Below are positions 1-25,772 of a DNA stretch of 64,000 nt, piece after piece. The stretch spans positions 238,020-302,019 of the forward strand of contig JACJYZ010000004.1 in assembly GCA_020635855.1 (NCBI GenBank), in the 5' to 3' direction. Position 1 is the first letter of the stretch. Each line of letters begins with the position of its first letter. Source of the DNA: Flavobacteriales bacterium (GTDB taxonomy: Bacteria; Bacteroidota; Bacteroidia; JACJYZ01). The position numbers were made by a program, and so were the translations under genes. Below the pieces are notes generated by a model. It saw only the letters and a list, made by a program, of their open reading frames with translations. It did not search any database and was not told where the DNA came from.

Positions 1-26
1 ATTTTCAACAAGATTTCAATTCATCC

Positions 27-4424: not shown

Positions 4425-5402
4425 TCAATACCCCACTTTCTCCCTCACCCGCTTAATCACCTTGCCGGCGATCAGCTTGGCCCGCAATGCACCTTTGGAC
4501 AACTCATTCTCGATGAGGGCCGGTGTGGCCATCAGCTCTTCGTAAGCGTTGCGCTCTTTTTCAAAACGTTTGCAGATCACCTGGAACAGGGCGTCTTTGG
4601 CATGGCCGTAACCGAAATTGCCCGCCAGGTATTTGGCACGCAGGTCTTCTATTTCCGCTTCCATTGCAAGCAGTTCATACAACCTGAAAACGTTGCATGT
4701 GTCGGGATCTTTGGGCTCTTCCAATGATTTCGCATCAGTGACGATGGTCATCACCTGCTTGCGAAGGGCCTTGTCGTTTTGAAAGATGTCGATGTAGTTG
4801 TTGTAGGATTTGCTCATCTTCTGGCCATCGGTGCCGGGCACCACCATCACCTTCTCATTGATGAGCGCTTCCGGCAGCACCAAGGTTTCTCCGTAGGCAT
4901 GGTTGAAGCTGCCGGCAATGTCCCGGGTGATCTCAAGGTGCTGCTTCTGGTCTTTGCCCACCGGAACAAATTCCGAATCATACAAGAGGATGTCGGCTGC
5001 CATGAGTACCGGATAATCAAACAGACCCACATTGACTTCATTCAGGCGGCTCGACTTATCCTTGAACGAATGCGCATTGGCCAGCATCGGGTAAGGTGTA
5101 AAGCAGTTCAGGTACCAGGTGAGTTCGCACACTTCGGTGACATCACTCTGACGAAACAGGATGCTGTCGTTGGTATCCAAACCGAAAGCCAGCCATGCGG
5201 CGGCTACAGCGAGGGTATTTTCCTTCAGCACCTTCGGGTCTCTCACGGTGGTCAGGGAATGCAGGTCGGCGATAAAATAGATCGCATCGTTCTCATCCCG
5301 GTGCGACAATTCGATCGCGGGCAGGATGGCACCCAGGATATTTCCCAAATGGGGTTTTCCTGTGCTCTGGATGCCGGTTAAAATTCTTGACATGGTATTC
5401 AA
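4425..5402 (-). CDS. trpS: Tryptophan--tRNA ligase
   Basis: Class I aaRS HIGH-type motif (TGKPHLGN) and KMSKS motif are present in the 325-aa translation. Overall TrpRS-like sequence. Confidence 0.9.
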   Translation of the reverse strand: MNTMSRILTGIQSTGKPHLGNILGAILPAIELSHRDENDAIYFIADLHSLTTVRDPKVLKENTLAVAAAWLAFGLDTNDSILFRQSDVTEVCELTWYLNCFTPYPMLANAHSFKDKSSRLNEVNVGLFDYPVLMAADILLYDSEFVPVGKDQKQHLEITRDIAGSFNHAYGETLVLPEALINEKVMVVPGTDGQKMSKSYNNYIDIFQNDKALRKQVMTIVTDAKSLEEPKDPDTCNVFRLYELLAMEAEIEDLRAKYLAGNFGYGHAKDALFQVICKRFEKERNAYEELMATPALIENELSKGALRAKLIAGKVIKRVREKVGY

Positions 5403-5463
5403 TCAATGGCAGTCGGCTGCGCCTACCTGCCGGTTGTTACAGATGAAGCAATCGTGAATTTAT

Positions 5464-6522
5464 CTAAAGAGAGAGCAGCCATGCGGATTGATGTTCGGCG
5501 CGTAACGCCTCCAACCGGGCTTCCGCCGCCTCGCGCGTGGTGAACCCTTCCAGGCTTACCCTGTAGAGACCGCGTTCGTTCTGACCTGCAATACTTGCAT
5601 CATAACCCTGTTTCCGCAATTCTTTCAGTTTCTTCTCGGCATTCCGCTTGCTGCGGAAACATCCTCCGATAAGATGGAAACGGTTCTCCTTGGGAGGCGC
5701 TTGGATGGGCTGGGATTCCACGGGCGCCGGCTGTGCAGGCGGTGCATCTTCTTTCTTCTCATCGCTGACCGCTTCTGCCTGATGATCTTCAACGGGAGCG
5801 GTGGTCACATCACTTTCCGGGGATGAAGTTTGCGGCACAACCGAATCTTCCTGCGGTACGGTCATCTCCAGCGAAGAAAAATCGGTACCAGGTTGGGGTG
5901 AACCGAATTGAGAAATGGTCCAGGCCAGAAAGGCGCCCATCACAATGAAGACGGGAACAACCGCCGCAACTTTCCAATCGCTGATGCGTCGGATCCTGCG
6001 TACCGTGATTTCCTTCTTTTCCGGTTGGGGGGTGATGCTCCGTTCAATGATGTTCACCGCTTTGGTTTCCTGAACAGATGTGATAACGGGTTGGGGGATC
6101 TCCCTGGCTCGTGCCACCGCCACCACAGGTGTGAGTCCGAATGACGACTTCGCAAAATGCACTTCACCCGAAGGTTCAAAAAGAATCTTGCCGGCAGCGT
6201 TCATGTAAAACCGCCCTACCTCATCCACACGGATCCGTTCTCCTTTTTGCAATCGTTCCTTCCAGGAAGTCAATACATCCGCCACCAAACGCTTCGCTTC
6301 GTTATAGGAAACGCCTTCCCCTTGTCTCACGGCATCTGTCAACAATCCATCGTTGTTGCGCAACACCGGGTTGAAAGACAATTGTTTTCCGGGGGGAAGT
6401 AACCGCCGTTGGTGCACCAGCAAGCGAGCACTCGATTCATTCGCCACCAGCCCGCCGAAATCCGGCAGGATCACACAATCATGTGCCCAAAGCAGTTGCT
6501 TGATATATGGTTCGATCGACAT
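5464..6522 (-). CDS. HU-like N-terminal domain / SPOR domain-containing protein (peptidoglycan-binding, cell-division associated)
   Basis: C-terminal sequence FHLIGGCFRSKRNAEKKLKELRKQGYDASIAG...YRVSLEGFTTREAAEARLEALR is a typical SPOR fold signature. There is a central TM segment and a Pro/Glu-rich linker. Confidence 0.65.
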   Translation of the reverse strand: MSIEPYIKQLLWAHDCVILPDFGGLVANESSARLLVHQRRLLPPGKQLSFNPVLRNNDGLLTDAVRQGEGVSYNEAKRLVADVLTSWKERLQKGERIRVDEVGRFYMNAAGKILFEPSGEVHFAKSSFGLTPVVAVARAREIPQPVITSVQETKAVNIIERSITPQPEKKEITVRRIRRISDWKVAAVVPVFIVMGAFLAWTISQFGSPQPGTDFSSLEMTVPQEDSVVPQTSSPESDVTTAPVEDHQAEAVSDEKKEDAPPAQPAPVESQPIQAPPKENRFHLIGGCFRSKRNAEKKLKELRKQGYDASIAGQNERGLYRVSLEGFTTREAAEARLEALRAEHQSAWLLSL

Positions 6523-6569
6523 GTACAGTATGGATACGCCGGCCTAAAAATACATAAAACCACAGGATG

Positions 6570-7316
6570 TCAGTGGCCCGGAGCCTGTAATTTTTTTACA
6601 TCTTCCGGTCTGTCCACCGCTGCACTCTCATACGCGGTGATACCCACCCGGATACGGAATCCGTTCTGCAACCACCGAAGCTGTTCCAATGACTCCGCTT
6701 TTTCAAGTGACGATACAGGCAAGGCGGCGATGGCTTTCAGTGCATCATACCTGAAAGCGTAAACACCCAGGTGCTTTAGGAAAGTATGCTCACCGAGCCA
6801 TTCCGCCGTAGGAAAACCCTTTACATACGGGATGGCCTGACGGCTGAAATAGAGGGCCCATCCTGCGTGGTCGGTCACCACCTTCACCCGGTTGGGGTCA
6901 TGAAGGGTTTCGGCATCCTCTACCTTTTTGGCCAGCGTGGCGATGCGCACCTGTTCATCCCCGAAAAGATCACACAGTTCCCTGATCTGTTCAGGATATA
7001 AATAGGGTTCATCTCCCTGTATGTTGATGAGTACATCATGATCACCGGGTGCGGGATCCATGTGATTGGATGCTTCCCTGCAACGGTCCGTACCACTTGG
7101 ATGATCGGGTGATGTCATCACCACCTTCCCACCGAAGGACGCCACGTGTTCACGGATGCGGTCGTCATCGGTGGCCACCACCAGGTTGTCCAAACCCGCT
7201 TTCGAAGCCTGCTCCCATACCCTCCGGATCATGGTCTTCCCATGGATCATGGCCAATGGCTTTCCCGGGAATCGGGTGGAAGCATAACGGGCCGGAATGA
7301 TACCTATGAATTTCAT
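6570..7316 (-). CDS. kdsB: 3-deoxy-manno-octulosonate cytidylyltransferase (CMP-KDO synthetase)
   Basis: MKFIGIIPARYASTRFPGKPL... is the canonical KdsB N-terminus. The ORF track extends the frame to 7694, but the conserved start is at 7316 (ATG). The extension overlaps dprA. Confidence 0.85.
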   Translation of the reverse strand: MKFIGIIPARYASTRFPGKPLAMIHGKTMIRRVWEQASKAGLDNLVVATDDDRIREHVASFGGKVVMTSPDHPSGTDRCREASNHMDPAPGDHDVLINIQGDEPYLYPEQIRELCDLFGDEQVRIATLAKKVEDAETLHDPNRVKVVTDHAGWALYFSRQAIPYVKGFPTAEWLGEHTFLKHLGVYAFRYDALKAIAALPVSSLEKAESLEQLRWLQNGFRIRVGITAYESAAVDRPEDVKKLQAPGH

Positions 7317-7406
7317 ACGGGAAAATGTGATGTTCGAACTTACGTTTGGCGAGGCCGGGCCCTTCAATCGTTTACTTTTGGCCGCAACAAATGTAACGGA
7401 TTCAGG

Positions 7407-8507
7407 GTGGATGCACAATGGATACATCGCCTCGCGCTCTTGTTCATACCGGGCGTCGGGGTTCAGTCGGCCAAGATCCTGCTGGCATACGCCGGCGGTG
7501 AAGACGCGATTTTTCATATCAGTAAAAAAGAACTCCTGAAAATGCCCGGGCTCTCCACCGCAGCTGCCCGTTCGGTATGGCAACACAAAGATGAGGCCCT
7601 GGATCGCGCGGCTCGGGAATGGAAGTTCATCCGGACCAAAGAAATCCGTCCGGTATTCTTTACCGATGCAGATTTCCCTTCCCGACTCAGGCATACCCCT
7701 GACGGACCCATCCTATTGTTTGTTGAGGGGAATGCAGAACTGAATCCTTCCAAAGCACTCGCAGTGGTGGGAAGCAGAAAGGCCAATGCATACGGGCTTT
7801 CTCTTTGCGAGCAGATCATCACCGATTTGGCGGCACATGATGTATGCATCGTGAGCGGACTGGCATACGGCATGGACATCATGGCTCACCGCACCGCCCT
7901 CGCCACCGGTCTGCCCACCCTCGGGGTGTTGGGTCACGGACTGGATAGGATGTACCCCGGACAACATGCACAGATAGCCGAAAAAATGAAAACCAACGGT
8001 GCCCTCATCACCGAGTTTGCCAGCGGCACCCAACCCGATCGGGAAAATTTCCCGAGACGCAACCGCATCGTTGCCGGCATGGTGGATGCCCTGCTCGTTG
8101 TACAAACCGCCACTTCGGGAGGTTCACTTATCACCGCGTCGCTGGCCATGGATTACAACCGGGATGTGTTCGCCGTGCCAGGCCATGTGCATGACCCCTA
8201 CTCGGCTGGCTGTCATGCGCTGATCAAATCCAACAAAGCCGCATTGGTGGAATCGGCGGAAGACATTATTCATGCCATGAACTGGCAACCGAAGAAACCC
8301 GCATCCATCCAAACCGAATGCTTCCCGGTTTGCACGGATGATGAACAAGCACTGCTTGACATCCTTCGGTCGCACGGTGAACTTCCGATCGACGAACTGG
8401 GTGCCGGGTTGAAATGGACACCCGCCCGCACCTCATCGGTTTTACTTCAACTGGAGTTCAGGGGACTGGTCAAGGCCCTGCCGGGTAAAAGGTACCGCCC
8501 GGGATAA
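7407..8507 (+). CDS. dprA: DNA processing protein DprA (Smf)
   Basis: RLALLFIPGVGVQSAKILL (N-terminal SAM-like motif) and the Rossmann-like DprA core (ALAVVGSRKANAYG, VSGLAYGMD, VFAVPG) are present. I propose the start at GTG 7407 because the ORF-track start (7146) lies inside kdsB. The exact start is uncertain. Confidence 0.75.
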   Translation: MDAQWIHRLALLFIPGVGVQSAKILLAYAGGEDAIFHISKKELLKMPGLSTAAARSVWQHKDEALDRAAREWKFIRTKEIRPVFFTDADFPSRLRHTPDGPILLFVEGNAELNPSKALAVVGSRKANAYGLSLCEQIITDLAAHDVCIVSGLAYGMDIMAHRTALATGLPTLGVLGHGLDRMYPGQHAQIAEKMKTNGALITEFASGTQPDRENFPRRNRIVAGMVDALLVVQTATSGGSLITASLAMDYNRDVFAVPGHVHDPYSAGCHALIKSNKAALVESAEDIIHAMNWQPKKPASIQTECFPVCTDDEQALLDILRSHGELPIDELGAGLKWTPARTSSVLLQLEFRGLVKALPGKRYRPG

Positions 8508-8623
8508 GTTTATACACATCAGGCCGTTCATGTTCCATGGAGGCGCTCCCGGAAATGTGCTTCATTTCTTTTTACATTTCCGGCATAATCTTTGTCAACA
8601 CTGCCATTCAATACTTCTGCCGG

Positions 8624-9157
8624 ATGAAGCGAACGTTATTTTTTCACCTGTTACTGATCTCCACCTTTGTGTTTTTGGCCGGAACTTCCGCCAACGCCCA
8701 ACGCATTCGTCCATGGGGACTGGGACCCGAAGTGATCTACAACTACTCCATCAAGGAGATCGGTCTGGGTGGCCGGGCACATCTTTACATGGGACGGTAC
8801 ATCTTCTTTTCTCCGGAAATCACTTTCTTCCCGGGCTTCAACAAATACAAGGAAATGTATGTCGGTGCCGGTGTACATTACAACACCACACCCGACTACA
8901 AGTGGGGATTCTACGGCATGATGCACCTGGGCTGGAACCGTTGGTTCAACTATGATGAGTTCATCACCGAAAAAGCCAAACCACACAACCTGGCCGTGGA
9001 ACCGGGTATTGGTATGGTGCTCAACCGGGGCTGCCTGCGACCCTTCGGTGAGGCGCGGTACAACTGGAAATGGCACGAGGGTTCACTCCGCATCGGTGTG
9101 ATCTTTCTCTTCAAATACTGCCAGGCACATGAGTTCTGTCCGCCTGCAGCACACTAA
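8624..9157 (+). CDS. Hypothetical outer-membrane beta-barrel-like protein with signal peptide
   Basis: MKRTLFFHLLLISTFVFLAGTSANAQ signal peptide. Alternating aromatic/hydrophobic beta-strand pattern ends ...RIGVIFLF. The start is taken at the internal Met of the ORF-track frame. Confidence 0.45.
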   Translation: MKRTLFFHLLLISTFVFLAGTSANAQRIRPWGLGPEVIYNYSIKEIGLGGRAHLYMGRYIFFSPEITFFPGFNKYKEMYVGAGVHYNTTPDYKWGFYGMMHLGWNRWFNYDEFITEKAKPHNLAVEPGIGMVLNRGCLRPFGEARYNWKWHEGSLRIGVIFLFKYCQAHEFCPPAAH

Positions 9158-9176
9158 CCTGACAACCTGCAAACGC

Positions 9177-10046
9177 ATGAAAAACAAATACGGAATCTGG
9201 ATCCTGCTGATCGCTACACTCTTCGTTGCATGCAAGAGCGTACGCAAAGAACAAGGCGATTCGTTCGAATCCATGGACGAATTCTTCGACGCACACAAAC
9301 AGGAAGAACAAACATTCGTGCTCGACAGCGGTGGCACAGGTCCGATTGTAGGAAAAATGGGCAGCTTGTTATACGGTGACTCTTCCATTTTCATGGATGC
9401 CAACAGCAACGATGTATCCTACCCCATCACCCTGAAACTGATCGAACTTTACACCCGCGGCGATATCATCCTGTACCGCACGCCCACCATCAGCGACAAC
9501 GGTACGGTGCTCAGGTCCGGAGGCGAGATCAAACTCACAGCCTTCAAAGACAGTCAGCCCTTGCAAATCAAACCGGGGAAATATTTCAGGGTGGATATGC
9601 CCTGCTCCGCACCCGAAACAGGCATGACGATGTTTTACAGCAGCCAGGATCCGGCCGAGAACTGGACCTATTCCGCCGATCCCGCCCTTGACGTGGTGGG
9701 CTTTTATCAGACCCGGCCGACGAAATTGGGCTGGATCAACTGCGACAAACTCTACAGCGGCGGAACCAACACCACCATCACCTTCACGGTGGATGGAAGC
9801 GGCACCGAAAACATCAACGTTTTCATTGCCTTTAAGAATTTTCTTTCCGTGCTGAAAGTGTCCGGCCTGGTATCAACCAATGTACCTGAGGGGGAAGACA
9901 TCACCGTGATTGCCATGGCAAAAGACAAGGGTGGAAATTACCGCCTGCATCAATCCAACGAAACCATTGCAGCCGGTATGACCGTTGCCCTGGATATGCA
10001 GGAAGTGACGGAGCAACAATTGGTGGATTTCCTGGGGGGATTGTAG
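9177..10046 (+). CDS. Hypothetical lipoprotein
   Basis: MKNKYGIWILLIATLFVACKS lipobox-type signal (Cys after the hydrophobic core). No recognisable catalytic motifs. Confidence 0.5.
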   Translation: MKNKYGIWILLIATLFVACKSVRKEQGDSFESMDEFFDAHKQEEQTFVLDSGGTGPIVGKMGSLLYGDSSIFMDANSNDVSYPITLKLIELYTRGDIILYRTPTISDNGTVLRSGGEIKLTAFKDSQPLQIKPGKYFRVDMPCSAPETGMTMFYSSQDPAENWTYSADPALDVVGFYQTRPTKLGWINCDKLYSGGTNTTITFTVDGSGTENINVFIAFKNFLSVLKVSGLVSTNVPEGEDITVIAMAKDKGGNYRLHQSNETIAAGMTVALDMQEVTEQQLVDFLGGL

Positions 10047-10241
10047 CGATTTGAGAACTGTTCAAACTGTTTTAAGTTCACAAATACAGCAATGCATATT
10101 GAATGTGATGCTGATGTGTACATTTCTTGCCTGATAGGTAAGGATTGAAAAAGATACTTCTGGTTAAACACTCCTTTATGGTACATTTTAGCATTTTTAG
10201 TGCATTATGTATCTATCAAACGGATGCAAAAATATTTTTAA

Positions 10242-12155
10242 ATGAATGCAAAAGACTTATTTGACCAACTAAATGCAACGGATGAAGTAACGGAAATAGA
10301 AGCTAAGCCAAGCAGAGCTATTACGTCGTCTGTTATGGAAACTGTATGTGCTTTTGCAAATGAACCAGGGCTTGGAGGAGGGTATATTTTGATTGGTGCA
10401 AGGAAGGATCCATCTAGCCTATTTCCCCAATATATCATTGACCCCATTCTGGATCCTGACAAGATTCAATCGGATTTTGCAACTCAATGTGCTAGTTCAT
10501 TCAATATACCAATAAGGTCAGAGATTAGAATTGAAAAAGTGAATGATAAAACCGTTGCGGTAATAAAAGTCCCTGAGCTTCCTAAAGAACAAAAACCTTT
10601 GTATTTCAAATCCAAAGGGCTTCCTGAAGGCGCATACAGGCGTATAGGCCCAACAGACCATCGATGTACAGAGGATGATTTGCCTATTTTTTATTCCGAT
10701 CAAAAAACCTTTGATCAATCACCTCTAGATTATACAAGCATCGCTGATATTGATGAAGTTGCTTTAAAACGTTATCGAGACCTTCGCACAAATATTAATC
10801 CAGCTGCTGAAGAACTGACTTATAGTGATTCTGAATTACTTCAGTCACTTGGTGGGATAGCTATTGATGGGTCTCAACGCATCACAGTGTCAGGAATGTT
10901 GCTGTTTGGAAAACTAACAAGTTTGCGGAGAGTATTTCCTATGATGCGAGTGGATTATATAAGGATTCCTGGTAATGAATGGATTGCAAATCCTGATGAA
11001 AGATTTACAACTGTTGATATGAGAGGGCCCCTGCTAACCCTTGTTTTTCGGATTGTGGATGCAATCTATTCAGATCTTCCAAAGGGATTCCGACTAGAGG
11101 ATAAAGATATTCAAGCTGACACGATTGGTATGCCGGTAAAGGCGCTGAGAGAGGCTGTAACAAATGCTCTAATGCACCGCTCGTACCGTGTCAATTCTCC
11201 TATTCAAGTAATCCGTTACGATAACAGGCTTGAAATTGTTAACCCAGGATTCTCCTTGAAATCTGAAGAACAATTAGGTTCACCTGGATCTGAAACGCGC
11301 AACCCATATATTGCTGCTGTTTTTCATGAAACAAACCTTGCAGAAACAAAAGGTTCTGGAATTAAGGCAATGAGAAAGTTGTTATCTGGTGCCCATCTTG
11401 CGCCACCAACTTTTGAATCTGACAGAGTTCATAACAAATTTACTGCTCGTCTTCTATTGCATCATTTTCTTTCCAAATCTGATTTAGATTGGTTAGCTAA
11501 TTATGGTGACGTTGACCTTAATGATAAGCAAAAACAGGCATTAATATTTGTTAGGGAGGTTGGAGCAATTGACAATAACACATACCGGCAGTTGTCAGAT
11601 ATAGATACTCTCAAGGCAAGCACAGAACTACGCTATCTCAGGGATAACAATTTGTTAAAACAATTAGGAAAAGGCAGGGGAACATACTATGTAGCAGGTG
11701 ATAGGCTGGATATAGAATCCAGTGGTTCCGGTTCGGCATCTGTTGAAATAGCTGCTCCAGGAAGTATGGATATGAATGCTGAATCTAGTAACACAGAAGA
11801 TAGCACGGTAAACACAGAAGGTTTAACAGCTGATAATCATTCAAATAGGACAAACACAGAAGCTAATACTATTAACACAGAGGGTGAAACATTGTGGAAT
11901 GAACTCACACCAACATTACAAACTCAATTGAATTCGCTAAAGAAAAGAGAAAATAATGCAGAAAAGATTAAGAATATCATCGTTGAACTATGCAGTCTAA
12001 GAGAGTATAGATTATCTGAGTTAGCTCTACTAATAGGTAAAGATGAAAATTGGATAAGCAGAACATACATTAAACCACTAATCCAAGACGGTAGACTTTC
12101 TTATACCATTCAAGAAATGATTAGTCATCCCAAACAGGCTTACAAAGCAAAATAA
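10242..12155 (+). CDS. AlbA_2 (divergent AAA, Schlafen-like) + HATPase_c_4 + winged-helix putative DNA-binding ATPase with a long low-complexity T/N/E-rich C-terminal extension
   Basis: N-terminus ...VTEIEAKPSRAI...CAFANEPGLGGGYILIGA matches the AlbA_2 divergent-AAA pattern. ALREAVTNALMHRSYRVNSPIQVIRYDNRLEIVNPG matches the HATPase_c_4 pattern. It is followed by HTH-like segments and a TE/N-rich repeat tail. The gene and its flanks are about 40% GC against about 55% for the surrounding DNA. Confidence 0.7.
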   Translation: MNAKDLFDQLNATDEVTEIEAKPSRAITSSVMETVCAFANEPGLGGGYILIGARKDPSSLFPQYIIDPILDPDKIQSDFATQCASSFNIPIRSEIRIEKVNDKTVAVIKVPELPKEQKPLYFKSKGLPEGAYRRIGPTDHRCTEDDLPIFYSDQKTFDQSPLDYTSIADIDEVALKRYRDLRTNINPAAEELTYSDSELLQSLGGIAIDGSQRITVSGMLLFGKLTSLRRVFPMMRVDYIRIPGNEWIANPDERFTTVDMRGPLLTLVFRIVDAIYSDLPKGFRLEDKDIQADTIGMPVKALREAVTNALMHRSYRVNSPIQVIRYDNRLEIVNPGFSLKSEEQLGSPGSETRNPYIAAVFHETNLAETKGSGIKAMRKLLSGAHLAPPTFESDRVHNKFTARLLLHHFLSKSDLDWLANYGDVDLNDKQKQALIFVREVGAIDNNTYRQLSDIDTLKASTELRYLRDNNLLKQLGKGRGTYYVAGDRLDIESSGSGSASVEIAAPGSMDMNAESSNTEDSTVNTEGLTADNHSNRTNTEANTINTEGETLWNELTPTLQTQLNSLKKRENNAEKIKNIIVELCSLREYRLSELALLIGKDENWISRTYIKPLIQDGRLSYTIQEMISHPKQAYKAK

Positions 12156-12218
12156 TTAAGGACTTCCAGAACCAAATAGCGTTAACAACAAGGAAATACC
12201 TTATTTGTGAAACCCAGC

Positions 12219-13226
12219 CTAATCCTTGATGAACCTGGCCATCTTGCCTCCACGTCCTACGGCCCATCCACCGTCGTCGGTCAGGGTACAAGCGTAGTAA
12301 CCATCGGTACCCAACGAATCCCAGATAACGCCACCGTCGGTTGAATAATCCGAACCTGTTCTTCCTACTGCCACCAGCATGCCGTTGTGGTATGCCACGC
12401 AGGAACGATACCCGCGAGGTGGCCGCTTACCTTCCCGCCAACCTTGTCCGCCATCATCGGTGATGGCGCAGACGCCTTTGGTGTTGGTGGAGTCGGTATA
12501 GCTTCCCCCTACCACAACTCCTTCCATGTCATTCCGGAAGGCCATGGAAAAAATGCCGGCCGCCTCTCCGCTTTGCATATGGGGAATCTCAAAAACCTTC
12601 CATTCGTTCTGATCTGCGGACCACCTGAACACGCGTGCATGTTCACCTCCTCCGGTTCCGATGTACACGGTGTTCTTCATCGCCACAATACCTGTTCCGC
12701 TGGCCGCGAAACCGGCCTCGCCCTTCAGTGGTTTGGGAATAGTGGTTGCGTCCATGGCCTTCCAGGTTTGTCCACCATCCGTGGTGCGGAGCACAAACAT
12801 GTAATGATTCATGGGATCTCCGAATGCATAGCCGGTATCGGAACCATTGAATGCCATGCCATCCAGAAATACAGATGGGTCGGTGTTTTCGTATACTTTC
12901 TCCCAGGATGCACCCCCGTTCTCCGTCAGGAAAATCATACCCGGACTGCCGGCGGTCATCACCAGGGCGCGGTTGGCATCGAATGCCTGGATATCCCGAA
13001 GGTCAAGGCCTTTGGCTGCAGCAATGGTATCTACCCGCCACGTTCTGCCGTCATCCGCACTCTGGATCCAGGTGGCGTTGGTACCGCTTGCCCAGATCAC
13101 ACCGGGAGCCGGGGTTGAAAGTCCGCGGAGACTGGCATCGGTCACAGGTGACACGGGAAGCCATGCAGGTTGTGCAAGACCGGTAAGGGTCGATAGGAAA
13201 AGGCCGATGAGGAAAAAGATCCTCAT
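12219..13226 (-). CDS. Secreted BNR/Asp-box repeat protein (Ycf48-like / sortilin-type beta-propeller)
   Basis: Signal peptide MRIFFLIGLFLSTLTGLAQ. Repeated S/TxDGGxTW Asp-box motifs (SADDGRTW, TENGGASW, TTDGGQTW, TDDGGQGW, STDGGVIW). Confidence 0.6.
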   Translation of the reverse strand: MRIFFLIGLFLSTLTGLAQPAWLPVSPVTDASLRGLSTPAPGVIWASGTNATWIQSADDGRTWRVDTIAAAKGLDLRDIQAFDANRALVMTAGSPGMIFLTENGGASWEKVYENTDPSVFLDGMAFNGSDTGYAFGDPMNHYMFVLRTTDGGQTWKAMDATTIPKPLKGEAGFAASGTGIVAMKNTVYIGTGGGEHARVFRWSADQNEWKVFEIPHMQSGEAAGIFSMAFRNDMEGVVVGGSYTDSTNTKGVCAITDDGGQGWREGKRPPRGYRSCVAYHNGMLVAVGRTGSDYSTDGGVIWDSLGTDGYYACTLTDDGGWAVGRGGKMARFIKD

Positions 13227-13230
13227 GCCA

Positions 13231-14490
13231 TTACAAGTTCAGCAAAAGCTCATCGGCATCTTTGCCACCGGTGAGCATGCGGATGGGATCTTCCAGCATT
13301 TGTTTCACATTCACCAGGAACCCAACGGAGTCTTTGCCGTCGATGATGCGGTGGTCATAGGAAAGTGCCACATACATGATCGGGCGGATTTCCACCTGGC
13401 CGTTCACAGCCACGGGGCGCTCCACAATGTTGTGCATACCCAGGATGCCGCTCTGGGGCGGGTTGATGATGGGTGTAGACAACATTGAACCGAACACGCC
13501 ACCGTTGGTGATGGTGAAGGTACCGCCGGTCATTTCGTCGATGGTGATCTTTCCGTCGCGCGCCTTAACGGCCAGGATGCCGATGTTGCGCTCAATGTCA
13601 GCCAGCGACATTTGTTCGGCATTGCGCAGCACGGGAACCATGAGTCCCTTGGGTGTACTCACGGCGATACCCACATCCGCATAGCGGTGGTGAACGATTT
13701 CTTCGCCATCGATCATGGCGTTCACGTTCGGATAATTTTTCAATGCCTCGGTCACCGCTTTGGTGAAGAACGACATAAAGCCGAGTTTCACACCGTGCGT
13801 TTTCTCGAAGGCATCTTTGTATTTTTTGCGCAAGCTCATGAGGCGACTCATGTCTACTTCATTGAAGGTAGTGAGCATGGCCGTTTCGTTCTTCACGGCT
13901 ACCAGTCGCTGTGAAAGCTTTCTACGCAGGCTCGACAGTTTCTGACGTTCGATCTCTCTACCTCCCCAACCGGGTGCGGCTGCACCGGTGCCATTTGCCA
14001 GGGCGCTGAGCACATCTCCCTTGGTCACCCTGCCGTTCTTTCCTGTGCCTTGCACGGACCCTGAAGACATGCCGTTTTCATCCATCATCTTCTTGGCGGC
14101 CACAGACGGAAGACCGGTGGCGTAGTTGGAAGATGATTGTACCGGAGCTGCTTCGGACTTGGCGGGTTCTGCTGTTTTGGCTGCAGCAGCGGTTTCTTGT
14201 TTCGCCTCCTCTTTCTTAGGTTCAGCTTTTGCTTTCTGGCCCTCCGGTGCTTTGGCTGAAGTATCAATGGTGCAAACCTTGTCGCCGACTTTCACGGTAC
14301 TGCCTGCTTCCACCAGGATCTTAACCTTTCCGGCTGCTTCTGCATTCAACTCGAGGGTGGCTTTATCGGAATCGATCTCGGCCAGCACCTGGTCTTTTTC
14401 CACATAGTCGCCGTCCGCCACCAGCCAATTGGCAATTTCAACTTCGGTGATGGATTCACCGGGACTGGGGATGGTCATTTCAAGGGCCAT
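13231..14490 (-). CDS. sucB: Dihydrolipoyllysine-residue succinyltransferase, E2 component of 2-oxoglutarate dehydrogenase
   Basis: N-terminal lipoyl domain ([11 protein letters not shown]). Ala/Pro-rich linker. C-terminal 2-oxoacid dehydrogenase acyltransferase catalytic motif (DHRIIDG). Located immediately downstream of sucA. Confidence 0.9.
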
Positions 14491-14523
14491 AACTTGAGGG
14501 GTTTTATAACATGCTGACGTGGA

Positions 14524-17271
14524 TTATTCCACGCCCATTTCTAATCCTTTTTTGTGCTTGGCAAACACCTGGTCTATGATGGCCTGGTGTCGTTTCTCAA
14601 ACTTCTTGTAAGATCCGGTTGCGGGCGCTCCGCTGGCCGGCTGGCTGATGCACTGGATCGGCTTTTTGAACATGCGGATCATGAACGGCCATGCGCCCAT
14701 GTTCTCCGGTTCTTCCTGCGCCCATACATAGGAAGTGGCCTTCTTGTATTTCTCCATCAGCGCATTCACCTGTTTCTCAGGGTAAGGATACATCTGTTCG
14801 ATGCGAATGATCGCCACATCCTTTACACCCAGTTTTTCTTTTTGTTCGGAAAGATCATAATAGAACTTGCCTTGGCAGAACACCAGCTTCTTCACCACAT
14901 CTTCGTCGGTTTTCGCGTCATCGATCACCTCCTGGAAACCGCCCTTTGCCAGTTCATCCATGGTGGAAACACAGCTCGGGTAACGCAACAGTTTTTTCGG
15001 GGTAAAGATGACCAGCGGTTTTCTGAACTCACGGTGCAACTGACGTCGCAATGCGTGGAAGAAATTGGCAGGTGTGGTACAGTTCACCACCTGCATGTTG
15101 TTTTCCGCGCACAGCGACAGGAAACGTTCAAGGCGTGCGCTGGAGTGTTCGGCACCCATGCCTTCATATCCGTGCGGCAGGTAAAGCACCAGTCCGTTGT
15201 GCTTCTTCCACTTGTCTTCCGCACTGCTCAGGAACTGGTCGATAATGATCTGTGCACCATTGAAGAAGTCGCCGAACTGAGCTTCCCACACGGTGAGCAC
15301 ATTGGGTGATGCGAGTGCATATCCGTATTCAAATCCCAGCACACCGTATTCCGAGAGCAGGGAATTGTAAATCATGAAGCGGGCCTGCTTGGGGTCGAGG
15401 TTGGCCAGAGGCACATATTGTTCTTCCGAATCTTCCACCCTCACCACAGCGTGGCGGTGGGAGAAAGTTCCGCGTTCCACATCCTGTCCGCTGATACGCA
15501 CCGGATATCCTTCCATGAGCAAACTGCCGTATGCCAGCAGTTCGCACATGCCCCAATCGAGCTTGTTGTTATCGATCATTTCCCTGCGATCGGCCATGAT
15601 GCGCTCGATCTTCTTGAAGAACTTCGTGTTCTTGGGCAGGTGGTTGATCTTATCTGCGATTTTTTTCAGTTGTGTCTTCTTGACTGCAGTCACCGGTGAC
15701 TGATCAAAATCCTCCGGACTTGCCGGACGGATACCCTTCCAGTCGCCTTCGAGGAAACTCAGGCGGTTGCCGCTGGAGGAATGCTTGACTTCATTGAGTT
15801 TTTCTTCGAGGGTCGCCTTGAATTCATCCTGCATCTTTTCAGCGATCCGGGTGTCCTCGATCGCTTTGGACGACATCAGTTTATCGATGTAGATCTTCCG
15901 GGGATCCGGGTGATTGGCGATGGCTTTGTACAGCAAAGGTTGGGTAAACCTGGGTTCGTCGCCTTCGTTGTGGCCGTGTTTGCGGTAGCAAAGCAGGTCG
16001 ATGAACACATCTCCGTGAAAGGTCTGGCGGTATTCCATGGCCAGGTTGATGGTGTATACCAGTGACTCCACATCATCACCGTTCACGTGGAAAACCGGAC
16101 ACAGGGTCACCTTACCCACGTCGGTGCAGTAGGTACTGGAGCGTGCATCAATGTAGTTGGTGGTGAATCCCACCTGGTTGTTGATGACGATGTGGATGGT
16201 TCCACCCGTTCGGTAGCCGCTGAGTTGCGCCATCTGCACCACTTCATATACGATGCCCTGACCTGCGATGGATGCATCTCCGTGAATGAGGATGGGGGCA
16301 ATGCGGTTCTCATCGTTGCCGAAACGCCTGTCGAGCTTGGCACGTGCAATACCCTGCACCACCGGGTCAACCGCCTCGAGGTGGCTGGGGTTCGGAGACA
16401 GGGTCAGGTGAATTTTTTTACCACTGCGGGAGACCACGTCACCGGAGTAACCCATGTGGTACTTCACGTCGCCGTCAAAGAGGCTGTCGTCATCGAATTC
16501 TTTTCCTTCAAACTCGTTGAAGATCTCGCTGTAGGTTTTACCCATTACGTTGGCGAGTACGTTCAGGCGACCGCGGTGGGCCATGCCGATTACATAGTAT
16601 TCGATGCCCAGTTCGGCGCCTTTCTCGATCACCGAATCCAGGGCGGGGATCAGGGTCTCGGCGCCTTCCAGTGAAAACCTCTTCTGTCCTACATACTTGG
16701 TGTGAAGGAAGTTTTCGAAGACCACCGCTTCGTTGAGTTTCTTGAGGATGTGGGTTTTTTCTTCGGCCGAAAGGTTGGGGGTATTCCGCACCGATTCCAT
16801 CTTTTCCCTCAGCCAGGTGGCCACTTCGGGTTTGCGGATGTAGGCAAACTCCACACCGATGGACTGGCAATAGGTTTGTTTGAGGTGCGCAATGATGTCA
16901 TTCAGCGTGGCGGGCCCGATGCCGATCTCGCTGCCTGCCTGGAAAACCGTATCCAGATCGGATGCTTCCAATCCGAAGTTCTCGATATCAAGGGTAGGCG
17001 AATACTTCCGTCGTTCGCGCACCGGATTGGTTTTGGTGAACAGGTGCCCGCGCTGACGGTAGCCGTTGATCAGGTTGATCACACGGAATTCCTTGTCCAT
17101 GATTTCCGGGACGGCTTGTCCCGTGCCTTCGAAAGACGCTTTGGAGAATTCGAATCCCTCAAAGAATTTCCTCCATCCGAAATCAACCGATTCAGGGTCT
17201 TTTCGGTACTGCTGATACAGGGCATCCAGTGCCGCTGCATCCGCATTTCCCAGGTAGGTGCTTTTATCCAT
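14524..17271 (-). CDS. sucA: 2-oxoglutarate dehydrogenase E1 component
   Basis: 915-aa protein with the TPP-dependent E1 (OGDH) architecture. Strongly conserved blocks ([38 protein letters not shown]-like) are visible. Confidence 0.92.
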   Translation of the reverse strand: [915 protein letters not shown]

Positions 17272-17373
17272 CTAAACCTCGCATTTGCCGATCGTGAATC
17301 TTACAAAGTTAAGAGTATTCCGATTAGATAATAATACGGAACCCCATAGACCAGCCAGACATATGAAAATTCG

Positions 17374-17739
17374 TTATTTTTTGAAATGATGCCTGAACCA
17401 TACTTTCTGCAATTCTCTTCCTAATATAAGTTGCGTAATGAGCGCTTCGGTGGATTGTTCCGGGAACATCGCCATGGCACGGTGCAGACGCTGTTCGGGT
17501 ACATCCACCCTGTAAAGAAATGCAAACAGGCTGTTGCGGTCGGATCGCAACCACTTCGCGATCACTTCTTCCACACGCTGCTTGTTGGCTTTATACCCGT
17601 TTTGCAGATCAAGGTCGATATGAATATCCTCCCCGAACAAACCCAGGTCCTTTTCAAGCTGCAACATCACTTCCCGGAACCATTCCGGTTTTGACAGGGT
17701 TTGTACGACTTCCAGGCCGAAGGGGTTATCAAAGTCCAT
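17374..17739 (-). CDS. Hypothetical protein (121 aa), likely co-transcribed downstream of nadE
   Basis: Only substantial ORF covering this interval. No recognisable motif. Confidence 0.4.
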   Translation of the reverse strand: MDFDNPFGLEVVQTLSKPEWFREVMLQLEKDLGLFGEDIHIDLDLQNGYKANKQRVEEVIAKWLRSDRNSLFAFLYRVDVPEQRLHRAMAMFPEQSTEALITQLILGRELQKVWFRHHFKK

Positions 17740-17743
17740 GATT

Positions 17744-19390
17744 TCAGGAAAGATATTTGCCTTCGATGGGCATCCGCCTGCCCATTCCGAATGCCTTGGG
17801 AGACACCCTTAAAACCGGTGGTGACTGAAAACGTTTGTATTCATTGGTATTGACCAGCGACAAGGTGCGTCTGACAATACTTTCATCAAAACCCATGGCC
17901 AGGATCTCACGCGGGCCTTTTCTCAGTTCGATGTATTGATGGAGTATTTTGTCCAGCACATCGTATTCCGGCAGGCTGTCGCTGTCTTTCTGGCCGGGCC
18001 GCAATTCCGCCGATGGCGCCTTGGTGAGGATGTTGGCAGGAATCCGCTCACCGTCACGGTTCAGGTAACGGGCAAGTTCGTACACATCTGTTTTATAGAG
18101 GTCGCCGATCACCGAAAGTCCGCCACACATATCTCCGTACAGTGTGCCGTATCCCACGGCGGCTTCACTTTTGTTGGATGTATTGAGCAGCACCATCCCG
18201 AATTTATTGGCCAATGCCATCAGCACAAGTGCGCGCAACCGCGCCTGGATGTTTTCTTCCGCAACGTTGAACGGCAAGTCGCCGAATACCGGCTGCATGG
18301 TTTGCAAGGCTGTTTCGTACAGGGATGATATGGAGATATGATGCTGGTGGCAACCCAGGTTATGTACCAGCACTTCCGAATCGGTAACAGAATGTTCCGA
18401 GCTGAAAGGAGACGGCATCATGACCGCTGTTACGTTCTCTTTGCCCAATGCATCAACGGCGAGCACCAGGGTAACCGCAGAATCAATGCCTCCGGATAAT
18501 CCAAGCACAGCTTTCGACAAACCCAGCTTGGTAAAATAATCCCTTATTCCGAGCACAAGTGCGTGATGGATCTGCGCCATGCGCGAGCCGTGATCGGTTC
18601 TCCCGCTTCCGCTGGCCTTTCCGCACACGACATCATTGACATCAAATACCCGGAGGTCTTCCTCGAAATAGGCCATTTCCTCCACCACATCCCCCTTGGG
18701 GTCAATCACCAGAGATCCCCCGTCGAAAATAAGTTCGGTTTGCGCACCCACCAGGTTCACATAAAACAGAGGCAGACCGTACCGGGTCGCATTGGTACGC
18801 ATGACCTCCCTTCTGTCCGCCGCGTGGTTGTATGAAAACGGGGAGGCGGAAATATTAATCATCACATCCGGTCTCTGCACCTGAAGTTCCTTCATCGGAG
18901 AAATGGTGTACAGCGGATCCGACTCATCCACGTCCCACAAGTCTTCACAAATGGTCAGCGCAATGCGGTGCCCTTTGAACTCCACCACATCGAAACGGCG
19001 GTTCGGTTCGAAATACCTGTATTCATCAAACACATCATAGTTCGGCAGCAGGCTTTTGTGACGAATGGCGTTCACCTTTCCATCGGCAAGCAGGTAGGCC
19101 GAGTTGTGCAGGTTCTTACCCAGCGGATCGGGGTTGATGGACGGCCCGCCGATGATGGCGGCGATGTCGGTACACCCGGCCGCAATCTCATCCATGGTTT
19201 GGCGGCACTGAGTGATGAAGTCCTCGAATTCCAAAAAGTCCCTGGGAGGATATCCGCAAATGGCCAGTTCCGGAAAAACGACCAGATCGGCTTGCTGCCG
19301 GCGCCCGGCCTGCAGGGCATTTTGTATGGCCCGGCGGTTGGCTTCAAAATCACCAACGCGACAATTGATCTGTGCTAAAGCGATGCGCAT
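17744..19390 (-). CDS. nadE: Glutamine-dependent NAD+ synthetase (nitrilase domain fused to NAD synthetase domain)
   Basis: MRIALAQINCRVGDFEANRR is a CN-hydrolase N-terminus. The C-terminal half has the PP-loop ATP pyrophosphatase motif (GLSGGIDSAV). Confidence 0.9.
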   Translation of the reverse strand: MRIALAQINCRVGDFEANRRAIQNALQAGRRQQADLVVFPELAICGYPPRDFLEFEDFITQCRQTMDEIAAGCTDIAAIIGGPSINPDPLGKNLHNSAYLLADGKVNAIRHKSLLPNYDVFDEYRYFEPNRRFDVVEFKGHRIALTICEDLWDVDESDPLYTISPMKELQVQRPDVMINISASPFSYNHAADRREVMRTNATRYGLPLFYVNLVGAQTELIFDGGSLVIDPKGDVVEEMAYFEEDLRVFDVNDVVCGKASGSGRTDHGSRMAQIHHALVLGIRDYFTKLGLSKAVLGLSGGIDSAVTLVLAVDALGKENVTAVMMPSPFSSEHSVTDSEVLVHNLGCHQHHISISSLYETALQTMQPVFGDLPFNVAEENIQARLRALVLMALANKFGMVLLNTSNKSEAAVGYGTLYGDMCGGLSVIGDLYKTDVYELARYLNRDGERIPANILTKAPSAELRPGQKDSDSLPEYDVLDKILHQYIELRKGPREILAMGFDESIVRRTLSLVNTNEYKRFQSPPVLRVSPKAFGMGRRMPIEGKYLS

Positions 19391-25193: not shown

Positions 25194-25200
25194 TGATTGT

Positions 25201-25231
25201 TGGTTATTAGTTGGTAGTTATTGGTTATTGG
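25201..25231. repeat. Left arm of a perfect 31-bp inverted repeat flanking the four-helix-bundle gene (tggttattagttggtagttattggttattgg)
   Basis: Exact reverse-complement match to 25720-25750, verified base by base. Confidence 0.9.
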
Positions 25232-25355
25232 TAACCGGGAAACATCCAAGTTGAAAAATGAATTTATAAGTATAGTCGATTATAAACAATTAAAAACCGG
25301 CTCACACTGGGAGACTACATTAACATTGCAGATTCAGAAACAAACTTCACCTGCT

Positions 25356-25733
25356 ATGGAAAAAGTTTCCTCATACACAGATTTAGAGGTATGGAAAATC
25401 AGCCGATCGCTGGTAAGCGACATTTATGAACTTACAACTGGCTTCCCCTCGTCAGAAATGTTTGGCATAACCAATCAAATGCGCAGGTGTGTGGTTTCAA
25501 TACCCTCTAATATTGCTGAAGGATGCGGCAGACAACAGCCCAAAGATTGCATGCGTTTTTTTTCCATTGCCCGTGGTTCTCTTTATGAACTTGAAACACA
25601 ATTGTACTTATCATTGGATTTAAAGTTTATTTCATCGCAATCCCTGGTATCAACCATGAATAAAGTTATCACTTGCAAACGATTGTTAAACGGGTTCATC
25701 AACTATTACCACCGATTAGCCAATAACCAATAA
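25356..25733 (+). CDS. Four-helix-bundle protein (23S rRNA intervening-sequence protein family, PF05635-like)
   Basis: MEKVSSYTDLEVWKISRSLVSDIYELT...PSNIAEGCGRQQPKD...ARGSLYELETQL is the family signature. The gene is about 42% GC inside an operon of about 57% GC. Its stop codon lies inside the right inverted repeat. Confidence 0.85.
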   Translation: MEKVSSYTDLEVWKISRSLVSDIYELTTGFPSSEMFGITNQMRRCVVSIPSNIAEGCGRQQPKDCMRFFSIARGSLYELETQLYLSLDLKFISSQSLVSTMNKVITCKRLLNGFINYYHRLANNQ

Positions 25734-25750
25734 CTACCAACTAATAACCA
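25720..25750. repeat. Right arm of the 31-bp inverted repeat (ccaataaccaataactaccaactaataacca)
   Basis: Exact reverse complement of 25201-25231. Confidence 0.9.
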
Positions 25751-25772
25751 GTATCCAAAACCACAAACTCAA

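Follow-up and report, generated by a model that had tools for sequence, protein, structure and literature searches.

Closest described systems

According to the accessible text of one preprint, 60,692 of 103,533 prokaryotic SLFN proteins are Schlatpases, most of them small and with or without a C-terminal HTH; Schlatpase modules are also found in fusion with type I restriction-modification subunits or in exchange for them (Kuzmenko 2026, bioRxiv 10.64898/2026.05.29.728809). In the accessible part of a second study, the HisKinase-HTH class makes up 19.2% of pSlfn proteins, and a known defense gene is located within ±10 kb of 69.6% of pSlfn genes, leaving 30.4% for which this is not the case (Taboada 2026, PMC13056530). 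The same part reports on seven tested systems including HisKinase fusions; E. coli was protected by none of these but the DUF262 and Ig-like fusions, and hence by no HisKinase fusion in that published screen. The accessible texts of both papers define Ex4ExK, i.e. E-x4-(D/E)-x-K, and the SAFAN Schlafen box as catalytic motifs. A third paper describes a large Schlafen cluster associated with restriction-modification systems. For RzAgo, the SLFN-pAgo of Runella zeae, ATP drives the formation of tetramers and the SLFN domain cleaves tRNA; as far as the accessible text of the preprint goes, RzAgo is the sole member of the Schlatpase group for which ATP-driven oligomerization and tRNA cleavage were demonstrated (Kuzmenko 2026, bioRxiv 10.64898/2026.05.29.728809). 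In the literature before 2026 on COG2865 or on restriction-modification-embedded Schlafens, nothing functional was found.

The window analyzed here, a stretch of 64,000 nucleotides, harbors a gene for a 637-aa protein. Judged by its domains, this protein fits the Schlatpase supradomain of Kuzmenko (2026) and, in the scheme of Taboada (2026), the HisKinase-HTH class of pSlfn proteins. It has in common with them the SLFN_AlbA_2 domain, the PF13749 GHKL domain, an HTH, the Ex4ExK motif and the Schlafen box; furthermore, a patchy, horizontally transferred distribution and homologs in restriction-modification or defense islands. Nothing distinguishes the protein from this class, within which it belongs to a subfamily with two winged helices around a heptad-repeat linker, mostly from Bacteroidota where the source is named. 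The accessible parts of the two papers contain no description of such a linker.

The N-terminal Schlatpase module of RzAgo is homologous to the 637-aa protein, as indicated by a match of the PADLOC pAgo profile to aa 15-343 (E 5.7e-14). An identity as SLFN-pAgo (PADLOC PDLC02394) was rejected: the match covers only positions 41-361 of the 1121 in the profile, and the protein ends at aa 637 in winged helices. PAZ, MID and PIWI of RzAgo are absent, with two winged helices instead; lacking this core, the protein possesses no guide-RNA sensor. A PADLOC run, proposed as a check in the original prediction, yielded partial domain matches only (pAgo, and Aga_SIR2-PNTD1-PNTD2 at aa 153-337) and called no known defense system. 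Neither PADLOC nor NCBIfam provided a model spanning the whole protein, and NCBIfam gave no match.

Mammalian SLFN11 and SLFN13 share PF04326 and Ex4ExK with the 637-aa protein, and antiviral tRNA cleavage is the mechanism in mammals. [quoted passage not shown] An identity of the eukaryotic SLFN11/13 type was rejected, as neither the bilobed SLFN core (N- and C-lobe) nor the SF1 helicase of group III was found, and no solved mammalian SLFN is among the structural matches listed for the protein.

A single-gene AT-rich island

An island of about 40% GC within DNA of about 55% GC had been proposed. The GC content of the island (10047-12218) is 38.0%, compared with 51.2 ± 2.2% (sd) for all windows of 2,172 bp elsewhere in the 64 kb, the lowest of which has 0.464; the island thus lies about 6 sd from their mean. 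The estimate for the surroundings was too high: the whole window has about 51% GC and only the immediate flanks reach 52-56%. In 400-bp windows, GC is 0.34-0.43 throughout ~9,900-12,250 and 0.50-0.58 on either side. In 100-bp windows, it drops from 0.52 to 0.34 across 9,950-10,050 at the stop of the lipoprotein gene (10046) and rises from 0.39 to 0.54 across 12,150-12,200 at the stop of the BNR gene (12219). The boundaries are thus sharp, just as had been described. GC3 of the 637-aa gene is 0.274, compared with 0.589-0.672 for seven neighboring genes; GC1 and GC2 resemble those of the neighbors. The contrast therefore survives proper windowed calculation (0.380 vs 0.512; GC3 0.274 vs 0.59-0.67), and the description as a compositionally foreign insertion of a single gene stands. 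Positions of all features are given in Table 1.

Table 1. Features of the AT-rich island and of the encoded 637-aa protein
Feature	Position (nt)	Position (aa)	Strand	Evidence or remark
5' intergenic part of the island	10047..10241		.	GC 0.31
Schlafen nuclease + GHKL ATPase ('Schlatpase') gene, two winged helices	10242..12155	637 aa	+	ORF, Pfam, GC3
SLFN_AlbA_2 nuclease-like domain	10284..10667	15-142	+	Pfam E 7.8e-11, 43.0 bits vs cutoff 25.3
E15-x4-E20-x-K22 motif (EVTEIEAK)	10284-10307	15-22	+	within SLFN_AlbA_2
CAFAN Schlafen box	10347-10361	36-40	+	within SLFN_AlbA_2; C replaces S of SAFAN
GGGYILIGARKD	10374-10409		+	within SLFN_AlbA_2
Middle alpha/beta domain joining SLFN and ATPase domains	10719..11111	~160-290	+	AlphaFold2 pLDDT 80-93
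GHKL (Bergerat-fold) ATPase domain	11127..11456	~296-405	+	Pfam, Foldseek, invariant residues
N-box REAVTNALMHR	11148-11180		+	GHKL ATPase domain
NPG	11241-11249		+	GHKL ATPase domain, G1 box
G2 ETKGSGI	11343-11363		+	GHKL ATPase domain
First winged helix-turn-helix	11523..11696	428-485	+	AlphaFold2 H-E-H-H-E-E topology, pLDDT 84-93
Disordered linker ending in five degenerate heptads	11718..11894		+	pLDDT 27-43 at aa 493-547
Heptads NTEDSTV, NTEGLTA, DNHSNRT, NTEANTI, NTEGETL	11790-11894	517-551	+	end of linker
Second winged helix-turn-helix	11907..12152	556-637	+	AlphaFold2; ends in family motif HPxQAY
3' intergenic part of the island	12156..12218		.	GC 0.38; abuts stop of convergent BNR/Ycf48-like gene

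The claim of one 637-aa gene was correct, with a single ORF; a further credible ORF, tRNA, Rfam RNA or hidden small gene was not found within the island. The 5' intergenic part presumably carries the promoter. It contains neither an exact Bacteroidota -7 box (TAnnTTTG) nor a sigma-70-like site; only near matches to the -7 box occur (10119, 10182 and 10233), hence the promoter consensus is not informative. An intrinsic terminator was not found in the 3' intergenic part.

The surrounding genes encode amidohydrolases, TrpRS, HU-SPOR, KdsB, DprA, an OMP, the lipoprotein, the BNR protein, SucB, SucA, NadE and GldB. Judged from its sequence, the island is best explained as a single gene gained by horizontal transfer and located among housekeeping genes of a Flavobacteriales genome; the proposed recent date of acquisition is read from composition only. 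Insertion traces such as a flanking direct repeat, a target-site duplication, a tRNA, an integrase or a transposase were not found at the island, nor was a terminal inverted repeat beyond chance level. The best homolog is just 65-67% identical, so that no donor of the gene was found. A search for sister loci with the BNR protein gave only relatives of 31-39% identity in genome contigs and at most 44% in metagenome contigs, and a close relative genome for a presence/absence comparison at the site was found in neither.

The source is apparently a metagenome-assembled genome, and an AT-rich fragment of another organism might have been joined into the contig during assembly or binning. Exact matches were found neither for the SLFN protein nor for the lipoprotein (taken from its internal Met). 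An exact look-up of the BNR protein returned two short contigs only, L010 and L011, both identical to the window; they reproduce 11577-13468 and 11577-13228, respectively, at 100% identity, including the right junction base for base. Hence, the junction of the AT-rich gene with the BNR gene is real. Both contigs end at ~11577 inside the gene, as might be the case for a chimera; however, the ORF runs without interruption and can be aligned with its homologs from one end to the other, and the left and right flanks of the island are equal in GC and GC3. We thus consider a chimera extremely improbable.

Domains and conservation of the protein

The original assignment of AlbA_2 and HATPase_c_4 was confirmed by Pfam, with PF04326 and PF13749 both above the gathering score; the latter covers aa 319-396 (E 1.1e-17, 64.3 bits vs cutoff 26) and is located C-terminal to the SLFN domain. 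Structure 2KYY matches the SLFN domain with E 4.7e-38. The Schlafen box is followed by a Gly/hydrophobic stretch, GGGYILIG, at aa 45-52. In the ATPase domain, which Foldseek matched to the histidine-kinase catalytic domains 3A0Y, 7ZP0 and 8DWZ, the G1 box is NPG as compared to the classic DxGxG, and AlphaFold2 predicts a flexible ATP lid at aa 348-371 with low pLDDT. Both the wHTH and the second wHTH-like segment of the original prediction are present in the AlphaFold2 model; their structural matches are of the MarR/ArsR/Fic-C type, with the first being of the MarR/ArsR type and also giving a weak Pfam match to DIP2311-like_C (aa 426-483). 3LMM (DIP2311) aligns with aa 185-393. It is, as 2KYY (NE1496-type 'RecG-related' N-terminal domain), a structural-genomics entry; 3LMM is about 15% identical to the 637-aa protein, and the heptad linker and second winged helix are not seen in it.

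More than 100 homologs align with 95-100% of the query at 53-67% identity, mostly from Bacteroidota where the source is named. They share a common plan of first winged helix, heptad-repeat linker and second winged helix; among 64 aligned members, the linker followed by the C-terminal domain is present in all. The tail, which had been regarded as unusual and novel, is thus a regular part of this family. A search with the C-terminal domain alone returned 617 cluster representatives. In three homologs this domain scores as Fic-like_C (PF21247), above the Pfam threshold in two; the second winged helix of the 637-aa protein is homologous to the domain so scored. Across the 64 homologs, the Ex4ExK motif, the CAFAN box, the N-box and G2 are all conserved; invariant residues are E15, E20, K22, N40 and G47, E304 and N308 (N-box), N334 and G336, as well as T369, K370, G371 and G373 (G2).

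The older COG2865 view suggests a transcriptional regulator that binds DNA, or a protein of the chromatin type; it would have no immune role, and its Schlafen domain would serve nucleic-acid binding only. This would agree with the two MarR/ArsR-type winged helices, with DIP2311 as the closest full-length structure, the C-terminal domain of which is a Pfam transcriptional-regulator domain, and with the names given by the sources, which call it a DNA-binding or RNA-binding protein; P0001, whose sequence is identical, bears the name 'putative DNA binding domain-containing protein [Flavobacteriales bacterium]'. Furthermore, the 30.4% of pSlfn genes away from defense genes in the accessible part of the survey (Taboada 2026, PMC13056530) are in line with such a role. 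However, the nuclease and ATP-binding motifs are invariant family-wide and would be superfluous for a pure DNA binder. A conserved target operon is absent, with neighborhoods differing in all nine homolog loci analyzed and in the window. The patchy horizontal distribution and the embedding in restriction-modification operons also suit a conflict system better, and a purely regulatory function seems unlikely.

Genomic context

The original prediction had linked the family to defense and restriction-modification islands, which agrees with the 2026 papers and with the neighborhoods of the homologs. Four out of nine lie within restriction-modification operons of type I or III: two homologs (P0100 and P0048) between hsdS and hsdR of type I operons, and two between mod and res of type III systems, with Kiwa following one of these operons. 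One further homolog adjoins Vsr and a C5 methylase (Dcm). Two of the nine neighborhoods are plain housekeeping, i.e. solo copies recur.

The window copy is an orphan without a partner gene or visible mobility gene. The defense gene within ±10 kb that is typical of the pSlfn HisKinase-HTH class is absent, since no known defense gene was found within ~10 kb, and the 64-kb window contains no homologs of restriction-modification genes (hsdM, hsdS and hsdR included), Fic or Vsr. A weak second-copy match at 39.2 kb was rejected as an unrelated TPR-PD40-OmpA protein.

In the EcoprrI locus, prrC sits between hsdS and hsdR. PrrC/RloC can serve as a working analogy, i.e. an NTPase-regulated tRNA nuclease at the position also taken by P0100 and P0048, although PrrC combines an ABC-type ATPase with a different nuclease domain and shows no relation in sequence or fold to the 637-aa protein. 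An identity of the PrrC/RloC type was rejected, with Pfam giving SLFN_AlbA_2 and HATPase_c_4 only and the window lacking a type I operon. By analogy, the protein could be a restriction-modification accessory which is silenced by, or cooperates with, a type I or III complex and fires when a phage disables restriction; the window copy would then have lost its partner and be inert, or work with a restriction-modification system elsewhere in the genome. The positions of the homologs between mod and res, the restriction-modification association of the large Schlafen cluster, and the type I fusions and exchanges of Schlatpase modules in the accessible text of Kuzmenko (2026) would be explained. On the other hand, such a system is missing from the 64 kb around the gene, solo copies recur among the homologs, and the gene is fully intact with all invariant residues kept, unlike what would be expected of a decaying remnant. 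The diversity of partner types (type I, type III, Dcm/Vsr, Fic) also speaks against a single obligatory partner. We regard a PrrC-like guardian as possible but rather unlikely.

Homolog genes have 35-43% GC regardless of the GC of the host, and a second single-gene AT-rich insertion is found at L024 in a host genome of ~50% GC. A lone foreign gene that is extreme in GC3, is flanked by convergent housekeeping genes and has relatives in contexts varying among genomes might also be a selfish, toxin-like passenger kept by addiction or frequent transfer without benefit to the host. Distant relatives do occur on plasmids (22-28% identity) and in phage records, namely Streptococcus satellite phages (~26%) and one unannotated fecal contig (47%). 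However, the best plasmid match stays below 28%, and from these identities there is no clear sign that plasmids or phages carry the close subfamily. Neither an antitoxin-like small ORF nor an integrase, transposase or flanking repeat is present at the island. Additionally, 53-67% identity across Bacteroidota indicates purifying selection, and a mere passenger appears very unlikely.

Proposed function

With moderate confidence, we favor an acquired Schlatpase gene that would serve abortive-infection defense by ATP-gated tRNA cleavage, as reasoned from the characterized relatives. The protein would comprise, from N- to C-terminus, a Schlafen (AlbA_2) metal-dependent RNase domain, a linker domain, the GHKL ATPase, a winged helix, the disordered heptad-repeat linker and a winged helix of the Fic-like_C type. 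ATP bound by the GHKL domain may lead to oligomerization, which would pair the Schlafen domains as an active nuclease. The tRNA would then be cut and translation would stop, with the infection being aborted by the infected cell. A role as nucleic-acid-binding sensor or tether may fall to the two winged helices. RNase activity, ATP gating, trigger and defense phenotype of the 637-aa protein are all drawn here by analogy; for the HisKinase-HTH class, defense by ATP-gated tRNA cleavage is plausible, and a stand-alone sensor/effector role in defense is a reasonable assumption for the 637-aa protein.

Taken alone, the locus is one more orphan copy in a family of tens of thousands. It is also a clean natural example of a complete Schlafen-ATPase-HTH gene that stands by itself in housekeeping surroundings and has an upstream region of its own. 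Hence, it offers a convenient minimal construct for asking whether the commonest, still uncharacterized prokaryotic Schlafen architectures act without partners. Most deserving of specialists' attention are the heptad linker and the recurrence of homologs within type I and III restriction-modification operons, both being traits of the family and not of the window.

The heptad linker

The peptide quoted in the original prediction, NTEDSTVNTEGLTADNHSNRTNTEANTINTEGETL, corresponds to aa 517-551. A period of seven residues is the best linker repeat in 60 of the 64 aligned family members; linker length varies from 29 to 145 aa and the copy number of heptads varies as well. Two homologs, P0086 and P0104, are identical across 556 residues and differ by exactly four heptads, a difference that may also reflect repeat collapse in assembly.

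The linker might be a fast-evolving spacer that sets the reach or spacing of a nucleic-acid sensor, in a subfamily of PrrC-like guardians which plug into type I and III systems and the orphans of which sense the same signal and cleave tRNA. Examples of such a signal would be DNA that is foreign or unmodified, or the activity of an anti-restriction factor. The four-heptad difference is the one direct hint; as a whole, this idea is speculative and we consider it doubtful.

At the DNA level, Tandem Repeats Finder detected no array in the linker; a degenerate 39-nt direct repeat is located at 11790-11828 and 11853-11891, 63 nt apart.

Composition of the island and its junctions

GC content dropped to 0.34-0.43 across approximately 9,900-12,250 as compared to 0.50-0.58 on either side (400-bp windows). 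The interval 10047-12218 contains 38.0% GC; all other 2,172-bp windows of the 64 kb have a mean of 51.2% (sd 2.2, minimum 46.4). Its edges lie at most about 50 bp from the stop codons of the lipoprotein gene (10046) and the BNR gene (12219), which confirmed the compositional island with sharp edges of the original prediction. The island also proved to carry a single gene as proposed: neither a second credible ORF nor a tRNA or Rfam RNA was found within 10047-12218. GC3 is 0.274 in this gene and 0.589-0.672 in seven neighbours; GC1 and GC2 are similar, hence the contrast sits in synonymous positions.

Features of the island (nucleotides) and of the encoded protein (amino acids)
Feature	Position	Strand	Length	Basis
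Sole ORF of the island	10242-12155	+	637 aa	
SLFN_AlbA_2	aa 15-142			Pfam, well over gathering threshold
HATPase_c_4	aa 319-396			Pfam, well over gathering threshold
GHKL ATPase lid	aa 348-371			AlphaFold2 model, low confidence
First winged helix	aa 428-485			AlphaFold2 model
Disordered stretch	aa 493-547			AlphaFold2 model
Second winged helix	aa 556-637			AlphaFold2 model

The base composition argues for horizontal acquisition from a lower-GC donor, probably a member of the Bacteroidota; at 65-67% identity, even the closest homologue is too distant to point to that donor. Homologous genes have 35-43% GC in hosts of either 35% or 50% GC, and in one homologue locus (L024) a lone AT-rich gene again lies in a genome with about 50% GC. 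This gene (P0015, L024 10001-11908; GC 0.41, flanks about 0.50) resembles the window locus in its solo position, with a two-component system on one side and an RND efflux operon on the other. The case for transfer is further limited in that the island showed no insertion scars (flanking repeats, a tRNA gene, an integrase or a transposase) and that a search for sister genomes with the BNR protein in genome and metagenome collections returned only relatives with 31-44% identity.

The right-hand junction was reproduced exactly in two other public assemblies. Contigs L010 (Logan SRR12358676) and L011 (ENA ERZ28655346) cover the BNR gene along with the 3' portion of the Schlafen gene at 100% identity, matching window positions 11577-13468 and 11578-13228, respectively. 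They argue against a chimera at this junction, and an assembly artefact is a less likely explanation of the island; they add no evolutionary depth because the source samples may be related. Both contigs stop within 1 bp of position 11577, inside the gene in the conserved REVGAIDN region, possibly because AT-rich DNA was poorly covered, because the assembly graph tangled with other homologues in the community, or because the samples are related.

A second single-gene AT-rich insertion was observed at 25194-25772 (GC 0.38 vs 0.51-0.56 on either side). Its small gene encodes a 23S_rRNA_IVP protein (PF05635, E 1.9e-36) and lies in a phenylacetate (paa) operon, with a paaD-like gene on one side and an enoyl-CoA hydratase gene on the other.

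Domain architecture and relation to known Schlafen proteins

An AlphaFold2 model built with 64 homologues as input (mean pLDDT 75.8) predicted five folded units: Schlafen domain, middle domain, GHKL ATPase and two winged helices. Structural searches returned histidine-kinase catalytic domains as well as MarR/ArsR-type and Fic-C-terminal winged helices. The latter would suit a purely regulatory DNA-binding role, which is less likely; the protein contains EVTEIEAK (E-x4-E-x-K) followed by CAFAN and GGGYILIG, together with a GHKL N-box (E304, N308) and G2 box (TKGSG), and key residues of the nuclease, CAFAN, N-box and G2 motifs are invariant or at least 90% conserved among the 64 homologues. Prokaryotic as well as mammalian Schlafen RNases are reported to share a catalytic signature made up of E-x4-(D/E)-x-K and the SAFAN box (Kuzmenko et al. 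2026; Taboada et al. 2026, PMC13056530).

The pair of SLFN and PF13749 was named the "Schlatpase" supradomain by Kuzmenko et al. (2026; bioRxiv, May 2026), who report it in 60,692 of 103,533 prokaryotic SLFN proteins, most of them small with nothing else or a short C-terminal HTH. Among 5,930 prokaryotic Schlafens classified by Taboada et al. (Nat Microbiol 2026), HisKinase fusions account for 34.0% and HisKinase-HTH fusions for 19.2%; of seven systems reported as tested there, only one DUF262 and one Ig-like fusion protected E. coli. By its domains, the window protein is therefore an ordinary representative of the architecture that ranks second in frequency (HisKinase-HTH), the function of which is putative, and the gene is one more case of a known, very abundant kind.

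The heptad linker and C-terminal domain

More than 4,800 relatives were found in the protein database. The best 120 of these have 585-723 aa, 95-100% query coverage and 53-65% identity by the search measure (up to 67% in a MAFFT alignment); those with a named source belong mainly to the Bacteroidota (Lunatimonas, Echinicola, Chitinophagaceae, Bacteroidales, Flavobacteriales). Every aligned member shows the same order of winged helix, repeat linker and conserved C-terminal domain with an HPxQAY end, and the linker repeat has its best period at seven residues in 60 of 64 members. The tail, originally regarded as unusual and novel, is thus a family trait; the domain calls, foreign origin and defence link of that interpretation remain reasonable, so that it is supported in part.

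Linker length ranges from 29 to 145 aa across the 64 members. The window protein has five degenerate heptads (NTEDSTV, NTEGLTA, DNHSNRT, NTEANTI, NTEGETL), and examples from homologues are LSAPPQE, LSTPPQD, LNTDGRA, TNTHGDV and ELTTEDH. Homologues P0086 and P0104 show 100% identity across the 556 residues that lie outside the linker, and their LSAPPQE linkers of 57 and 29 aa differ by exactly four heptads (alignment A2); either the copy number changes rapidly or 21-nt repeats collapsed in short-read assemblies. P0053 and P0070, 94-96% identical to this pair outside the linker, also carry LSAPPQE repeats, in linkers of 50 and 57 aa.

Fic-like_C is the Pfam match of the C-terminal domain in three homologues, exceeding the Pfam threshold in two. 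As sole query against 1.84 billion library proteins, the domain retrieved 617 cluster representatives. Of ten mid-length matches scanned for domains, six had HATPase_c_4, Fic-like_C or both, and two consisted of Fic-like_C repeats. Two hits to this domain, P0238 and P0215, carry several such repeats without a Schlafen or ATPase domain. In P0022 (709 aa) the tail module is doubled, with an extra linker-like stretch and a second C-terminal winged-helix copy after the first (alignment A1, columns 745-858). The role of heptad linker and second winged helix is one part of the family-level question most worth pursuing.

Proposed mechanism and genomic neighbourhoods

RzAgo, an Argonaute-fused Schlatpase, binds and hydrolyses ATP and tetramerizes in an ATP-driven manner; its SLFN domain cleaves tRNA, and phage protection was shown (Kuzmenko et al. 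2026). In the window protein, PADLOC's pAgo profile aligns with precisely the Schlatpase module (aa 15-343, E 5.7e-14). An ATP-gated Schlafen RNase is the best-supported reading, its activity, trigger and phenotype being proposed by analogy with RzAgo, RorSlfn5 and Cash proteins; the sequence and fold features are the part of this mechanism seen directly. [quoted passage not shown] The two winged helices, spaced by the flexible heptad linker, may serve as nucleic-acid sensor or tether. A selfish toxin is a less likely reading.

Nine homologue loci were surveyed. Two are type I RM operons (in the order hsdM, hsdS, any small genes, the gene, hsdR). Two place the gene between mod and res of type III-like systems; Kiwa and a second Schlatpase come after one of these. 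Three others adjoin, respectively, Vsr and a C5 methylase, a Fic gene, and, where the contig ends, an HTH gene plus small genes of unknown identity. The remaining two have housekeeping genes around them. A third paper ties a large Schlafen cluster to RM systems. The main rival to the ATP-gated RNase reading is that the family is an RM accessory, PrrC-like and firing when restriction is blocked.

In the prrC locus, PrrC lies between hsdS and hsdR. The window gene is an orphan: its neighbours are KdsB, DprA, OMP and lipoprotein genes on one side and BNR/Ycf48-like, SucB, SucA, NadE and GldB genes on the other, and no relatives of the RM, Vsr, Dcm and Fic proteins of the homologue loci were found anywhere in the 64-kb window. 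As an RM accessory, this copy might depend on a partner encoded elsewhere. Why family members are housed in RM operons of types I and III is the other part of the family-level question most worth pursuing.

Locus L026 harbors a compact defence island (4841-18100) comprising type III res, the Schlafen-ATPase P0016, type III mod, a 23S_rRNA_IVP gene (12199-12561) and Kiwa KwaA/KwaB, continuing with another Schlafen-ATPase, shorter at 550 aa and bearing Fic-like_C, and then an SNF2 helicase. In L020 from Lunatimonas lonarensis, a small SLFN_AlbA_2-only gene (1508-1954, 148 aa) is located 8 kb upstream of P0105, a homologue embedded in type III RM.
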